Positions 36,426 through 56,547 of a stretch of 64,000 nucleotides of DNA are shown here, one piece after another (position 1 is the stretch's first letter; the number at the start of each line of letters is the position of its first letter). Source of the DNA: a virus; IMG/VR virus record IMGVR_UViG_3300024269_000023. One strand, given 5' to 3'. Made by a program: the position numbers and the translations under genes. The notes beneath the pieces are model-generated. The model was not told the DNA's origin. It was given only the letters and a program-made list of their open reading frames with translations, and searched no databases.

Positions 36426-36689
36426 ATGTTGTACTTACGAGATTTATTGCCTGCGGGTAAAAAGGTAAAAGTTGAATATCGTTGTAATGCTCCTAAAATG
36501 GACGATGAAGAAGATATGCTCTTTGGTTTCGCCATTTGGACTGGCGAAGAGTTAGTCAGTGGCGATGGTGATAATTATTACCTTGGTGATGTTGTAGAAC
36601 GTTATGAGTGGCATGGCGATATGGACCTCACCATTTGGATTGAAGTAATGTGGAGCTCTGATAGAAAGGAGGCACCAAGATATGATTAA
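36426..36689 (+). CDS. hypothetical protein
   Basis: 87 aa. Confidence 0.6.
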   Translation: MLYLRDLLPAGKKVKVEYRCNAPKMDDEEDMLFGFAIWTGEELVSGDGDNYYLGDVVERYEWHGDMDLTIWIEVMWSSDRKEAPRYD

Positions 36690-37575
36690 GAAATGGATTT
36701 TGACCGGCGATACTCATGGCGGTATGGCTACTATCTCCCGGGTAGGCAATATCAATCGGAATATGGATTGTATTCCCGAAGAAACTGGTATTATCATTCT
36801 TGGTGATGCCGGTCTGAACTTCTATCTCAATAACACAGACAAGAAGTATAAAAAGCTTCTAAATAGTCAGGGTTATCATATCTACTGCGTTCGGGGTAAC
36901 CACGAAGAGCGGCCCGAAAATCTGGGCTATGAGCTAGACTATGACCCCGAAGTAAAAGGTTTGGTATACCTTGACCCAAGTTTTGAAAATATCCAATATT
37001 TGATTGATGGCGAAGAGTACTGGTTTGGTGAGCACTCTGCTCTGGTTATTGGCGGTGCTTATTCCATTGACAAATGGTATCGGCTTGCGCGGGCCGGTTA
37101 TGCGCCCGAAGAGGCGGAAACCGCAAATCCTAAGAAGTGTGGTTGGTTCAAGGACGAGCAGCTTACTGCCGCAGAAGTGGCTGATATTTGGGACAAAGTC
37201 ATTGGTCGGCATTATGATTTTATTTTGACTCATACTTGCCCCCTCTCTTGGGAACCCACTGACCTGTTCCTTGGTGGTATCGACCAGAGCCAGGTTGATA
37301 AGTTTATGGAAACCTTCCTTGATGATATTAAGGATCGGTGCTCTTGGAGTGTATGGTGCTTCGGCCATTATCACGCAGATCGGGTTGAGCGGCCCTGTGT
37401 TGAGCAGTTCTATATGGACTATGAAGATATGGAAGTCGTGTGGAATCGGTATCATGGTGGAAAAACCTATATCAAAGAGTGGTGGCTACCCAAGAGTCCC
37501 TATATGAGTATTTGGGAAAACAGTGAGGAGGGTCAAGCATGGTTGAGTTCCGTGTCCCCATCAATCTCGTCATAA
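36682..37575 (+). CDS. calcineurin-like metallophosphoesterase (1 of 5)
   Basis: GDTHGG, GDAGLNF, GNHEER motifs. Confidence 0.65.
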   Translation: MIKKWILTGDTHGGMATISRVGNINRNMDCIPEETGIIILGDAGLNFYLNNTDKKYKKLLNSQGYHIYCVRGNHEERPENLGYELDYDPEVKGLVYLDPSFENIQYLIDGEEYWFGEHSALVIGGAYSIDKWYRLARAGYAPEEAETANPKKCGWFKDEQLTAAEVADIWDKVIGRHYDFILTHTCPLSWEPTDLFLGGIDQSQVDKFMETFLDDIKDRCSWSVWCFGHYHADRVERPCVEQFYMDYEDMEVVWNRYHGGKTYIKEWWLPKSPYMSIWENSEEGQAWLSSVSPSISS

Positions 37576-37733
37576 AAATCAAAGATATTGATGAGGATGA
37601 ATTAGAAAACTATATTGCAAGTATTCAACTCGCAATTCATGAAGTATTTTACTCCACCGATCCAGAAGATGACCACTATGAGGTTGCAATGTGTAACCCC
37701 GATTGGTTGCGTATAAGTAAGGAGGTGTGGTAA
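37539..37733 (+). CDS. hypothetical small protein
   Basis: 64 aa. Confidence 0.45.
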   Translation: MVEFRVPINLVIKIKDIDEDELENYIASIQLAIHEVFYSTDPEDDHYEVAMCNPDWLRISKEVW

Positions 37734-38014
37734 TGAACGGAAGAGATTATACAATTTCTGTTGCTTTGTCTGCGTTTGCGGGCTTGGCTCTGATGTTTGT
37801 AATCTGGCTACTCTCTCTCATTAGTTGGGCTCTCGTATGGGCGGTATTTGCTTTCGCATTTGTTCCTCTTGGAATGAAGGTTATTCAATTCTGGCGAGAT
37901 ACTAACTGTATGGATTTGAGTGACTTCTGTATAGAAGTAGACGACTATTTCAAAGAAAAGCAGAAGAAGAAAAAGAGTTCTATTGATAACGATATTGAAG
38001 ATATTGACTGGTAA
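37727..38014 (+). CDS. membrane protein
   Basis: Two predicted TM segments. Confidence 0.55.
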   Translation: MVMNGRDYTISVALSAFAGLALMFVIWLLSLISWALVWAVFAFAFVPLGMKVIQFWRDTNCMDLSDFCIEVDDYFKEKQKKKKSSIDNDIEDIDW

Positions 38015-38020
38015 AATAAT

Positions 38021-38048
38021 TCCCCTATGAGCGTTCATAGGGGAATTA
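38021..38048 (+). terminator. Rho-independent terminator
   Basis: tcccctatgagcgttcatagggga hairpin. Confidence 0.7.
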
Positions 38049-38077
38049 TTGATTTTTATAAAAAAATATGATATAAT
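38049..38077 (+). promoter_or_regulatory. conserved phage promoter
   Basis: TTGATT-17-TGATATAAT. Confidence 0.7.
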
Positions 38078-38111
38078 ATATATAGAAAGTGAAAGAAAGG
38101 AATTGATAAAA

Positions 38112-38249
38112 ATGATTGTAAAGTATGTCTGGTGTACCGATCATTACAATAAGCATTGGCGTCAGCACAGAGAACGAACCTGGAGAGGCTGGTTCTTATT
38201 TGGTTTCATTCCTCTCTATGTAGAAACTACGAATTTAACTTACAGATAA
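38112..38249 (+). CDS. small membrane protein (46 aa)
   Basis: ATG after AAAGGAATTG; the track ORF at 38049 is a promoter translation. Confidence 0.45.
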   Translation: MIVKYVWCTDHYNKHWRQHRERTWRGWFLFGFIPLYVETTNLTYR

Positions 38250-54934: not shown

Positions 54935-54936
54935 TA

Positions 54937-54965
54937 TTGATTTTTATAAAAAAATATGATATAAT
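54937..54965 (+). promoter_or_regulatory. conserved phage promoter
   Basis: TTGATT-17-TGATATAAT. Confidence 0.7.
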
Positions 54966-55003
54966 ATATATGTAAGATGTGAGAGGAAAGGAATGAATAA
55001 AAA

Positions 55004-55237
55004 ATGAGTAGAAATGCTTGGAGCAATAGCGATATCGGTTGCGGTACTGTTATTCTCATCATCATCGGTCTGATTGCCCTGTTGTTCCTGGGTCCCGCCA
55101 TTACGATGTGGTTGTGGAACTGGATTGCAGTGAGTCTGTTCGGACTTCCGGTGATTGGCTACTGGCAGGCTTTTGGTCTGCAGTGGCTGTGCCACATTCT
55201 GTTCGGTCATACCGTGACTGTTAGGAGTAATTCCTAA
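55004..55237 (+). CDS. membrane protein
   Basis: Two TM helices. Confidence 0.55.
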   Translation: MSRNAWSNSDIGCGTVILIIIGLIALLFLGPAITMWLWNWIAVSLFGLPVIGYWQAFGLQWLCHILFGHTVTVRSNS

Positions 55238-55344
55238 TGGCCCGGCGTGGCTATGCGGAACACAGTTTTTACTGTATCAATTGCGGTAATAAGGGCATCC
55301 CCTTGATGCGTAATCAAGGCTTCAAGCACGAGGGGATGCACTGA
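55237..55344 (+). CDS. zinc-ribbon protein (possible extension through TGA to 55503)
   Basis: First half CINC before TGA; second half CVHC and 53 more sense codons continue in frame with no start codon. Confidence 0.35.
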   Translation: MARRGYAEHSFYCINCGNKGIPLMRNQGFKHEGMH

Positions 55345-55453
55345 AAGAAGCTCTACTGTGTCCACTGTAAGCAAGAGGTAAATCACATCGAATGTAAGAC
55401 ATTTGATGAGGTTGAAGAGTTTCGGAACAATTTTGCAAACGGGGTGTATAAGA

Positions 55454-55948
55454 ATGAAGCAGAAGCAAGTATTTCTTTTGTCGGGTGTGCCGGGAGCCGG
55501 TAAGTCGACTTGGATCAGAAGTCGATTGGTGCCTGGTGCAGAGTGGATCTCGCGAGACAATGTGAGATTTGCAATTCTGACCGACGAAGATGACTATTTC
55601 GCCCACGAGGATGATGTGTTTGATACCTTTATCAATTACATCAATCAGACTTTGGAAAAGGACGAAATTCATACCATCTACATCGACGCTACTCACTTGA
55701 ACAAGCGTTCTCGTGATAAGGTGTTGCGAAGAATCCGTAAGGACAATATCTGCGATTTGACTTGCGTGTGCTTCGATGTTCCTTTGGCAGTTTGCCACGC
55801 TCGTAACAATTTGCGGTCCGGCCGATCCCGAGTACCGGCTTCCGCAATTGACAATATGTATAACTCTTACCGGCATCCCGATAAGAGCCAAGAACACTTC
55901 GATCACATCCTTGTGGTTGATGAAAATGGTACTATAAAGGAGGTGTGA
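55454..55948 (+). CDS. P-loop polynucleotide kinase-like protein
   Basis: Walker A GVPGAGKST; adjacent to phosphoesterase (Pnkp-like pair). Confidence 0.55.
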   Translation: MKQKQVFLLSGVPGAGKSTWIRSRLVPGAEWISRDNVRFAILTDEDDYFAHEDDVFDTFINYINQTLEKDEIHTIYIDATHLNKRSRDKVLRRIRKDNICDLTCVCFDVPLAVCHARNNLRSGRSRVPASAIDNMYNSYRHPDKSQEHFDHILVVDENGTIKEV

Positions 55949-56547
55949 GTATGGGAGAGATCTACCTTACATCGGACACCCATTTCGGTCATGACCGAGA
56001 GTTCCTGTGGGGTCCAAGAGGCTTTACAAGTTCGAGAGAACACGATGAAGCAATTATCAAGAACTGGAATGAGATTGTCGGACCGGACGATATCGTCTAT
56101 CACTGCGGCGACTTAATGCTCGGAGATAATGCTTATGGTATTGAGTGCGTGAAGCGCCTCAACGGTACGATTAAGCTGATCCGAGGAAATCACGACACCG
56201 ACGCTCGTTGGAAGCTATATGCGACTCTTCCCAATGTTGAGTTGCTTGGCTGGGCTGAGGTTATCAAGTACAAGAAGTACCAGTTCTATCTGAGTCATCA
56301 TCCTACGATGACTTCCAACCTTGATAAGGCACCTTACCTCAAGATGCATCTTATCAACCTGTTCGGTCATACACATCAGCAAAAGATGTTCTATGACGAC
56401 ACTCCTTTTATGTTCCATGTGGGACTTGATTCCAACGGCAATAAGCCAGTTCTTCTGGATGATGCCATTGAAATTATGAAGCAGGAAACAATTAAGTGCC
56501 TAGAGTTCCTTGATGAGGCTCCGGTCACTGTCGATCCCACTGCGTAG
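55945..56547 (+). CDS. calcineurin-like metallophosphoesterase (4 of 5); ends in TAG
   Basis: SDTHFGHD, GDLMLGDN, GNHD. Confidence 0.6.
   Translation: MSMGEIYLTSDTHFGHDREFLWGPRGFTSSREHDEAIIKNWNEIVGPDDIVYHCGDLMLGDNAYGIECVKRLNGTIKLIRGNHDTDARWKLYATLPNVELLGWAEVIKYKKYQFYLSHHPTMTSNLDKAPYLKMHLINLFGHTHQQKMFYDDTPFMFHVGLDSNGNKPVLLDDAIEIMKQETIKCLEFLDEAPVTVDPTA

Follow-up and report, generated by a model that had tools for sequence, protein, structure and literature searches.

An uncultivated gut phage of roughly 200 kb has four genes for calcineurin-like metallophosphoesterases (MPEs). We argue that they are non-paralogous members of a conserved block for the repair or maintenance of RNA, probably tRNA. 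Each would act there as a dedicated end-healing phosphoesterase. The genes, called M1 to M4 below, lie in a 64,000-nucleotide (nt) stretch of IMG/VR record IMGVR_UViG_3300024269_000023. This whole stretch is the window, and all coordinates are window positions. We put the probability of this reading at roughly 55%. Protein families, motifs, gene order and gene fusions can be read directly, and from these we infer the substrates and the division of labor among the four. An earlier note on the same DNA described five paralogous MPEs and listed RNA end healing among several possible roles. The coupling of M4 to a kinase, kinase-M4 fusions, alternative phosphatase domains on related kinases, and RlaP-like and Thg1-like neighbors favor that option over the others. 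The MPEs and their immediate partners are the following open reading frames (ORFs), with lengths in amino acids (aa).

35167-36045, plus strand: RlaP-like Pol-beta nucleotidyltransferase, the conserved upstream partner of M1 (phrog_388 'nucleotidyltransferase', E 4.6e-16)
36426-36689, plus strand: ORF of 87 aa that overlaps the M1 start by 8 nt and is conserved in close relatives
36682-37575, plus strand: M1, a 297-aa MPE of the phrog_1649 subfamily with an extra invariant GGAYSxDK..R motif
38262-38990, plus strand: M2, a 242-aa MPE of the aq_1665 (1xm7) family with an insert of about 50-75 residues and a basic C-terminal helix
38977-39786, plus strand: Thg1-like 3'-5' nucleotidyltransferase with a ribosome-binding site, whose start overlaps the M2 end by 14 nt (PF04446, E 1.4e-28)
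54221-54934, plus strand: M3, a 237-aa MPE of the lambda-phosphatase/NinI family with SDFHG, GDAGDRG, GNHED, NGG, WxR and HGH motifs (PF00149, E 8e-13; phrog_246, E 1.3e-32)
55454-55948, plus strand: 5'-OH polynucleotide kinase (PNK; P-loop, AAA_33) of 164-181 aa, the longest ORF running from 55403 (bacter_Pnkp N-terminal region, E 1e-13)
55951-56664, plus strand: M4, an aq_1665-family MPE of 198 aa, or 237 aa with TAG readthrough (Metallophos_2, E 7e-11; phrog_547, E 4e-47)

Four metallophosphoesterases in three subfamilies

Four window ORFs reach the Pfam gathering scores for an MPE: M1 (36682-37575), M2 (38262-38990), M3 (54221-54934) and M4 (55945-56547). The PF00149 scores are 42.1 bits for M1, 26.4 for M2 and 49.6 for M3 (cut-off 21.5), and M4 scores 42.8 bits with PF12850, Metallophos_2 (cut-off 27). 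All six-frame ORFs of the 64-kb window were searched by phmmer with each protein, with three family hidden Markov models and with a motif regular expression, and no fifth MPE was found. The earlier count of five took ORF 55945 twice, since it is itself the MPE of the Pnkp-like pair (kinase 55403/55454-55948 plus 55945).

Motifs I-III are found in the right order in each of the four, and the regular expression finds this order in no other window ORF. All five metal and phosphate motifs (DxH, GD, GNH[DE], H, GHxH) are present in each MPE and are invariant in the homologue alignments A1, A3 and A4. Judged from sequence, the catalytic motifs are intact in all four. The motif set that the note ascribed to every copy is only partly shared. 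Motifs I-III, GNH[DE] included, are common to the four, but GDxxDRG belongs to M3 alone and a motif I of the form GDxHG to M1 alone (GDTHG in M1, SDPHF in M2, SDFHG in M3 and SDTHF in M4).

The word paralogous is right at the level of the superfamily, but closer kinship is confined to one pair. Pairwise BLASTP detects only M2 and M4 (35% identity over 83 residues), and the other pairs share motif blocks only. The PHROG assignments give three families: phrog_1649 for M1, phrog_547 for both M2 and M4, and phrog_246 'NinI-like Ser/Thr phosphatase' for M3. By these comparisons the four MPEs are not recent paralogues and belong to three subfamilies. The earlier note had proposed this clustering as a check, and the four do not collapse into one housekeeping subfamily of the Mre11/SbcD type. 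Word-indexed protein searches return about 3150 homologues of M1, 4160 of M2 and 1270 of M4 at E <= 0.001. No domain fusions appear in the top-120 homologue lists of these searches, which hold close relatives only.

Proposed partner enzymes at RNA ends

The gene neighborhoods of the MPEs were compared across fetched loci. M3 was the anchor for 80 IMG/VR loci and Thg1 for 80, M1 was the anchor for 80 loci of genome collections, and several contigs with exact homologues were added. Their ORFs were labelled by iterated searches seeded from window proteins. It must be noted, as a point that counts against our reading, that the loci are phylogenetically clustered and were chosen by anchor gene. The counts below are therefore descriptive and not independent tests.

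A recurring gene order is found on contigs of 100-200 kb: MVP, cREC, RlaP, M1, [M2, Thg1], sigma, RNase T, ligase, [NAD genes, variable], M3, [M2, Thg1 as the alternative place], PNK, M4, flotillin, PIN-PhoH and lysin. All four MPEs are found together in 10 fetched loci, and 20 more have M1, M3 and M4. The co-occurrence of these genes in related contigs is beyond chance. We assign the repair block to a lineage of phages of gut Bacillota that is widespread and has genomes of 100-200 kb.

The clearest case is M4. The window PNK is similar to solved kinases (CthPnkp 4gp6, E 5.6e-9; 4gp6, 4jst and 4gp7 range from E 5.6e-9 to 2e-8; T4 Pnk 1ly1, E 1.7e-7), and no HAD domain is found in it. M4 matches 1xm7 at E 1.4e-7, or E 1.4e-20 with its family profile, and both M2 and M4 are members of the aq_1665 (1xm7)/phrog_547 family. 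The likeliest M4 start is the ATG at 55951, which has an AAGGAGG ribosome-binding site and lies 2 nt past the kinase stop. This layout indicates that M4 is translationally coupled to the kinase. M4 follows the kinase in all 48 assessable PNK genes of the M3-anchored loci. By sequence cluster across all fetched loci, M4 is the next gene for 22 of 25 PNK clusters. From the side of M4, 14 clusters are with PNK, 8 are without it and 1 is mixed.

Gene fusions make the same connection. An exhaustive M4 search of 1.84 billion cluster representatives gave 12,897 relatives. Among the best 150 of these are five fused proteins of 341-348 aa (P0396, P0399, P0400, P0420 and P0471) that have, by Pfam, an N-terminal AAA_33 kinase and a C-terminal M4-type MPE. 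They are mutually more than 50% different, and contigs carry the fused genes as real ORFs. Between the kinase half of P0399 and the window PNK the identity is 41% (E 6e-38). A related phage locus (L011:10913-12028) also encodes an AAA_33 kinase and an M4-type MPE as a single protein, so at least six such sequences are known outside the window. Other kinases carry other phosphoesterases. In L105, which is among the three PNK clusters without M4, the kinase is fused to a HAD_PNKP domain in the architecture of T4 Pnkp. In the sister phage L092 it is fused to a lambda-type MPE and a long C-terminal region, which is the architecture of bacterial Pnkp. The slot beside the kinase can thus be taken by three kinds of phosphoesterase that are unrelated or only distantly related, and no other argument speaks as strongly for M4 as the kinase's putative 3'-end-healing partner. 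That M4 acts with PNK and a ligase to heal and seal breaks whose ends are a 2',3'-cyclic phosphate and a 5'-OH is, as a prediction, well supported by context. By the same fusions and alternative HAD and lambda-type domains, the aq_1665/phrog_547 family is predicted to be a 3'-phosphatase or 2',3'-cyclic phosphodiesterase.

A gene pair in a cultured phage may serve as a model for the kinase-M4 pair. In rV5-like coliphages, E. coli phage FV3 among them (L252, NC_019517.1 61985-68497), an M4-like 'phosphoesterase' directly follows a 136-aa P-loop 'ATPase', and RNA ligase 1, Sir2 and tRNA genes adjoin. We rejected this 'ATPase' as the counterpart of the window PNK, since their similarity is limited to the P-loop. 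The FV3 pair is a lead and not evidence.

M1 is next to a different RNA enzyme. The RlaP-like gene is directly 5' of 35 of the 37 assessable M1 genes in the M3-anchored loci, with a median start-to-start distance of 985 nt. Across all loci, 17 M1 clusters are with RlaP, 16 are without it and 2 are mixed. The Pol-beta GS..D.D motif of the RlaP-like ORF is invariant. RlaP adds one or two nucleoside monophosphates to the RNA 3'-OH ends of damaged RNAs (PMC12776372). Because it needs a 3'-OH, an adjacent phosphoesterase that deblocks or trims 3' ends would be its logical partner. Solved structures say little about M1 itself, as sequence and profile searches give only motif-level matches to PP2A and calcineurin (E 0.045 or worse). 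The neighbors of bacterial M1 homologues are heterogeneous and uninformative (a PP-loop ATPase, a helix-turn-helix regulator, an SF1 helicase and DUFs). We consider the role of M1 as 3'-end repair partner of the RlaP-like enzyme moderately supported.

M2 has a Thg1-like polymerase as its neighbor, and their overlap indicates that M2 is translationally coupled to the Thg1-like gene. Across all loci, Thg1 follows 17 of 19 M2 genes. In the M3-anchored loci, M2 is upstream of 14 of 15 Thg1 genes. The pair is found at two genome positions, either after M1 or after M3, as if it had moved as one cassette. The Thg1-anchored loci give an unbiased test of this link, and there M2 is present in 2 of 80. 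Because it is this rare, M2 is downgraded to a lineage-specific accessory. Its proposed role as 5'-end repair partner of the Thg1-like enzyme has moderate to weak support. We found no description of either the RlaP-M1 or the M2-Thg1 pair in the literature that could be searched. These pairs are candidate partners for two RNA-repair polymerases.

M3 is a member of the lambda phosphatase/NinI family by its GDxxDRG motif, phosphate-binding Arg and similarity. The GDAGDRG is at residues 33-39, of which D37 and R38 are invariant. The M3 family profile matches lambda phosphatase 1g5b at E 3.5e-19 over residues 3-178, ApaH structures at E 6e-7 and the CthPnkp phosphatase domain 4j6o at E 2.7e-6. The earlier suggestion of a Ser/Thr phosphatase therefore stands as a family label for M3, based on 1g5b and phrog_246. 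PNK is within 5 kb 3' of M3 in 41 of 74 assessable M3-anchored loci. The NAD block is absent between the ligase and M3 in L029, L030, L036 and L042, which argues that the stable neighbors of M3 are RNA-repair genes and not NAD genes. Lambda phosphatase and the CthPnkp phosphatase both hydrolyze 2',3'-cyclic phosphates in vitro (PMC2190708). By analogy M3 might do so too, but of the four cases for an RNA end-healing enzyme this is the weakest. We rejected the L092 kinase as a PNK-M3 fusion. Its lambda-like MPE shares 32% identity with M3 over 65 residues, a distant relationship that gives M3 weak support.

These parts can be put together as follows. Host nucleases would cut tRNAs or other RNAs. 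The breaks would have a 2',3'-cyclic phosphate or 3'-phosphate on one side and a 5'-OH on the other, and in some of them nucleotides would be missing. In a heal-and-seal branch PNK would phosphorylate the 5'-OH and the coupled M4 would strip the 2',3'-cyclic or 3'-phosphate. The DRB0094-type RNA ligase (43147) would then close the break. M3, just 5' of PNK and M4, may add a second 2',3'-cyclic phosphodiesterase or phosphatase activity. In a 3'-end branch M1 would deblock or trim the 3' end, and the RlaP-like enzyme would restore one or two lost 3' nucleotides. In a 5'-end branch M2 would prepare or finish 5' ends for 3'-5' rebuilding by the Thg1-like enzyme. The window has more that is in line with RNA repair: 42 tRNA genes, the RNA ligase, and TROVE-like, MVP-like, cREC, RNase T-like and PIN-PhoH genes. 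The block runs in the order cREC, RlaP-like, Thg1-like, sigma, RNase T-like, DRB0094-type ligase and HD protein. Such a gene set agrees with what has been published on the RNA-repair modules of large phages (PMC7824862).

A more ambitious version would have three RNA-end branches each with its own MPE: the split kinase/aq_1665-type pair as a third Pnkp architecture, M1 with RlaP for 3' ends, and M2 with the Thg1-like enzyme for tRNA 5' ends. It would add a switch of M4 between its 198-aa form and a Cys-rich 237-aa form during infection, made by suppressor tRNAs that read TAG as Gln. We hold this combination to be doubtful as a whole. If it is true, the split PNK-M4 architecture gives the 20-year-old orphan family of 1xm7 its first function, and the M2-Thg1 branch implies anti-phage host nucleases that hit tRNA acceptor ends.

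Known repair systems and competing explanations

The overall kind of system is already known. Bacterial Pnkp of Clostridium thermocellum (Pnkp-Hen1) shares a P-loop 5'-OH kinase of the same family, a binuclear MPE that removes 2',3'-cyclic and 3'-phosphates, and an RNA ligase partner. Its kinase domain is homologous to the window PNK (4gp6 and the N-terminal region of TIGR04075, at the E-values given above), and its phosphatase domain (4j6o) is distantly homologous to M3. In the window, however, these activities are on separate proteins and the kinase-coupled M4 is of the aq_1665 family and not of the lambda-like clade. The ligase is also separate, of the DRB0094 type and 11 kb upstream, and no Hen1 methyltransferase is seen in the window. 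A bacterial Pnkp has its kinase, lambda-type phosphatase and ligase-like adenylyltransferase in a single polypeptide. PNK and M3 fall far short of TIGR04075 (50.4 and 15.2 bits, cut-off 750), and M3 is in a different promoter-delimited unit.

T4 Pnkp and T4 RNA ligase 1 follow the same logic against the anticodon nuclease PrrC: tRNA ends with 5'-OH and 2',3'-cyclic phosphate are healed and then ligated. The T4 Pnk kinase domain is homologous to the window PNK (1ly1), and the L105 sister phage has AAA_33 with HAD_PNKP. The phosphatase arm in the window is a separate MPE, M4, and not a DxDxT HAD domain, so the window system is not of the T4 type. A few jumbo phages have calcineurin-like phosphatases in place of HAD phosphatases (PMC7824862). 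Jumbo-phage and bacterial RNA-repair modules (RlaP, Thg1, PNK, TROVE/Ro, RNA ligases) have the same partner genes as the window. What sets the window apart is that one block combines three MPE subfamilies and links each of them to an end-modifying enzyme of its own.

The remaining likenesses are at the level of single families. M2 and M4 share theirs with Aquifex aeolicus aq_1665 (PDB 1xm7; phrog_547 'phosphoesterase'), a structural-genomics protein. M2 differs from it by the extra insert and basic C-terminal helix. Of 50,697 deposited phage records, 1445 (about 3%) have an M4-like gene, and the kinase coupling and fusions described here suggest a role for this family. M3 shares the full motif set of the lambda Ser/Thr phosphatase (NinI; 1g5b), including GDxxDRG, NGG and WxR. 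It differs in having a conserved place before the kinase-phosphoesterase pair of a large lytic-type phage, and is not in a nin region. The aq_1665-family kinase partner is an architecture beside those of T4 Pnkp and bacterial Pnkp.

Several observations weigh against a common RNA-repair role, and they are best considered with the strongest alternative. This is that the MPEs are a mixed bag. Only M4 would act on nucleic-acid ends, M3 would be a protein Ser/Thr/Tyr phosphatase of host or phage phosphoproteins, M1 and M2 would act on small phosphoesters, and their proximity would reflect crowding of accessory genes. M3 is a clear member of the lambda phosphatase family, much nearer to lambda phosphatase than to the Pnkp phosphatase by the E-values given above. 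Enzymes of the lambda type also act as protein phosphatases, and phages without RNA-repair genes commonly have them. In the window M3 would share a transcript with NMNAT, if the putative unit is right. In a 75-kb human-gut 'Oscillospirales phage' of the Ca. Heliusvirales (L257, PV036458.1 57717-60833) an early operon holds an M1-like and a NinI-like gene at a distance of 1.7 kb, and no RNA-repair genes can be recognized. This speaks against confining M1 and M3 strictly to RNA repair. An Enterococcus Herelleviridae phage has M4-like and NinI-like genes 0.7 kb apart and no kinase.

Other such observations concern the polymerase partners. The RlaP-like ORF 35167 matches PF10127 (RlaP) weakly, at 16.7 bits and E 0.006 where the gathering cut-off is 23, and no solved relative of it was found by sequence or family-profile search. 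Many Bacilli and Erysipelotrichaceae genome bins have M1-family genes alone, without RlaP. A putative terminator and promoter separate the RlaP-like gene from M1 in the window, and each window MPE is in its own putative promoter-delimited unit. M2 is upstream of only 17 of 93 Thg1 genes across all loci and occurs only in a lineage that is shallow and comprises 4 sequence clusters. Neither the M1 subfamily nor the aq_1665/1xm7 family has been characterized biochemically, and we found no functional paper on the latter in the literature. What the mixed bag does not account for is gene order. The RlaP-M1 and M2-Thg1 adjacencies are kept over many diverged contigs, the latter at both genome positions, and M3 stays in front of PNK and M4 whether the NAD block is there or not. 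We regard the mixed bag as quite possible but less likely than our main reading.

Another line of reasoning makes the MPEs anti-defense enzymes. They would destroy signaling or NAD-derived nucleotides (cyclic oligonucleotides of CBASS or type III CRISPR, Ap4A, (p)ppGpp, ADP-ribose derivatives) alongside the genes that rebuild NAD+. M3 is in the NMNAT unit and ends the NAD block, both in the window and in its closest relative L010, and it has weak similarity to ApaH. A review of jumbo phages predicts nucleotide degradation for some calcineurin-like enzymes, orthologues of T5 A1 (PMC7824862). Calcineurin-domain proteins of the Metis defense system can cleave NAD+, as mentioned in bioRxiv 10.64898/2026.01.28.702374. 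On the other side, M3 keeps its position in contigs without NAD genes. The NCBIfam equivalog models for ApaH and PrpE score far under their cut-offs. With 34.4 bits against the ApaH model NF001204 (cut-off 176), M3 does not support the Ap4A hydrolase named in the earlier note. The cyclic-oligonucleotide degradation also proposed there left no sign in this analysis. Acb1, Apyc1 and the ring nucleases, phage enzymes that break down immune signaling nucleotides and hydrolyze cyclic oligonucleotides, have 2H, metallo-beta-lactamase or DUF1874 folds, which are distinct from the MPE fold. A text search of a catalogue paper on 268 phage anti-defense proteins found metallophosphoesterases and calcineurin-like enzymes unmentioned. 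We consider an anti-defense role unlikely. We also rejected the MPEs as the 'phage phosphatases' that act against NAD depletion. In extended NARP1, experiments identify the phosphatase as a Macro-domain protein and not an MPE, and the window has its own Macro gene (51380).

The healed ends might also be DNA. PNK and M4, and possibly M1, would then heal nicks with 3'-phosphate and 5'-OH or process DNA ends in replication, recombination or the repair of host-inflicted damage. T4 Pnkp works on both DNA and RNA. The fused kinase-M4 homologue P0471 (L254, a 114-kb phage contig, gene 8001-9044) is beside gyrase B/A and an NAD-dependent DNA ligase, which hints that some family members heal DNA and not RNA ends. 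M2 has a weak similarity to the single-stranded DNA nuclease PdeM/MPE. In this lineage, however, the pair sits with the RNA ligase, RlaP-like, Thg1-like, TROVE-like and tRNA genes and not with DNA replication genes. There is no SbcC/Rad50-like partner near the MPEs, and proteins of 198-297 aa have no Mre11/SbcD capping domain. DNA ends are quite unlikely as the main substrate here. The idea that all the MPEs are fragments or duplicates of one housekeeping Mre11/SbcD-type nuclease can be dismissed, since only the MPE fold is in common and none of the three PHROG families is annotated SbcD/Mre11. Each of the four is a complete, conserved ORF that has its full set of motifs, and the solved proteins closest to them are 1xm7, lambda phosphatase and Dbr1 and not Mre11. 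A true member would combine the MPE core with a capping domain (about 330-400 aa) and have an SbcC/Rad50 ATPase next to it.

Transcription units, TAG codons and neighboring genes

All recognizable window genes are on the plus strand. A 29-nt motif, TTTATAAAAAAATATGATATAATATATAT (TTGATT-17-TGnTATAAT), has 20 plus-strand copies where 0 are expected, at sites from 3970 to 54971 (for example 36377, 38055, 41592, 49106, 53443 and 54943). Terminator-like hairpins are immediately 5' of several copies. By its match to the consensus, TTTATAAAAAAATATGATATAATATATAT is probably a phage early or middle promoter that defines short transcription units. Four conserved copies head the units that hold the MPEs.

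36345-36399, plus strand: terminator-like hairpin (36345-36366) and promoter-like site (36371-36399), start of the M1 unit
38015-38077, plus strand: terminator-like hairpin and promoter-like site, start of the M2-Thg1 unit
53437-53465, plus strand: promoter-like site heading the NMNAT-g54060-M3 unit
54937-54965, plus strand: promoter-like site heading the g55004-PNK-M4 unit

The putative unit from P36371 has g36426, M1 and two small ORFs and ends at T38015. The one from P38049 has M2, the Thg1-like gene and two small ORFs and ends at T40214. P53437 would drive NMNAT, g54060 and M3, and P54937 would drive g55004, PNK, M4 and onward.

The end of M4 deserves its own consideration. A TAG at 56545-47 closes the ORF, another lies at 56551-53, and the frame runs on to a TGA at 56662-64. 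Two relatives that are 97-98% identical to M4 (P0121 and P0122) have Gln at both TAG positions and are 237 aa long with a Cys-rich tail. Because the first TAG is Gln in relatives as close as 98% identical, the M4 product may extend to 56664 (237 aa). The window has two adjacent suppressor tRNAs with CTA anticodons (20451-20600), one of which shares its acceptor stem with the window tRNA-Gln genes. TAG is probably recoded to Gln in the window, as far as the DNA can tell, and M4 may have short and long forms depending on suppression. There is no in-frame TAG in M1, M2 or M3, which end in TAA, TGA and TAA respectively. Elsewhere in the window, in-frame TAGs break a tail-fiber-like ORF (29560-30640) that is continuous in the relative L002. 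PIN-PhoH is broken by an in-frame TAG at 60437-60439, and with readthrough its PhoH domain is complete again. Of the nine TAG-terminated ORFs, seven are located after 55.9 kb.

The other genes of the neighborhood are these.

4021-23979, plus strand: tRNA array of 42 genes, likely substrates or beneficiaries of the repair genes (ARAGORN, Rfam)
26886-28445, plus strand: TROVE/Ro-like protein (DUF2828 and DUF7788) in the conserved RNA-repair neighborhood (Pfam, synteny)
30777-33257, plus strand: major-vault-protein-like protein of 826 aa (MVP shoulder, Vault_3), a conserved upstream neighbor (Pfam, synteny)
34104-34415, plus strand: small cREC_REC-domain protein (precomputed PF20274 on the identical gene in L001-L003)
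40627-41547: sigma-70-family factor, complete (regions 1.2-4 in relatives) and conserved in the lineage
41643-42554, plus strand: RNase T/DEDDh-type 3'-5' exonuclease, which heads the ligase unit (Pfam)
43147-44574, plus strand: ATP-dependent RNA ligase, DRB0094/PHA02142-like (TIGR02306, E 3.3e-19; phrog_968, E 5e-60)
44752-45411, plus strand: HD_4-domain phosphohydrolase, 3' of the ligase (Pfam)
45726-54063: dense NAD+ block of PncA-like, Prs-like, Sir2, NAMPT-like, Macro, NadE, NADAR and NMNAT genes
56994-58514: flotillin/SPFH-like protein of 506 aa with a long Ala/Glu/Lys-rich coiled coil, conserved in the lineage

The window ends with the flotillin-like, PIN-PhoH and endolysin genes. The TROVE/Ro-like and MVP-like genes are conserved neighbors of the RNA-repair genes across the phage lineage. 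The cREC_REC domain is a different phosphoesterase-type family that has been linked to RNA ligases (PMC7824862). The NAD+ block is variable or absent among related contigs. Its Prs-like (46500), NAMPT-like (49635) and Macro (51380) genes resemble the published NARP1 and associated Macro phosphatase (Adps, Namat, Adpp), and NMNAT and the NAMPT-like gene resemble NARP2.

Metagenomic contigs, the longest of about 200 kb, encode identical or near-identical copies of window proteins. At the DNA level, megablast and blastn gave no match between the region and deposited phages, so there is no close cultured relative among them. Related contigs are binned with Acutalibacteraceae, Oscillospiraceae, Gemmiger and Eubacterium genomes, and from this binning alone an Oscillospirales-type gut Firmicute is the probable host. 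In gut and rumen metagenomes the phage lineage is very abundant. An unusually elaborate RNA-repair kit beside 42 tRNA genes suggests that tRNA-targeting defenses press hard on the phages of such hosts.

The tRNA array holds other RNAs as well. A full-length ROOL RNA is within it (RF03087, 16047-16660, 328 bits, E 1e-74), a drum RNA is among the tRNA genes (RF02958, 11343-11453, 78 bits), and there is a partial OLE-like match (RF01071, 22506-22593) with 53.4 bits against a gathering score of 50, over model positions 437-594. ARAGORN calls a two-base anticodon ('ag') for the tRNA at 6073-6146, which has an unusual anticodon loop and an Rfam tRNA score of 47.7 bits. Directly after the array, at 24283-26711, are an EcoRI-like adenine methyltransferase (E 1e-98) and then a GmrSD-N and HNH nuclease.

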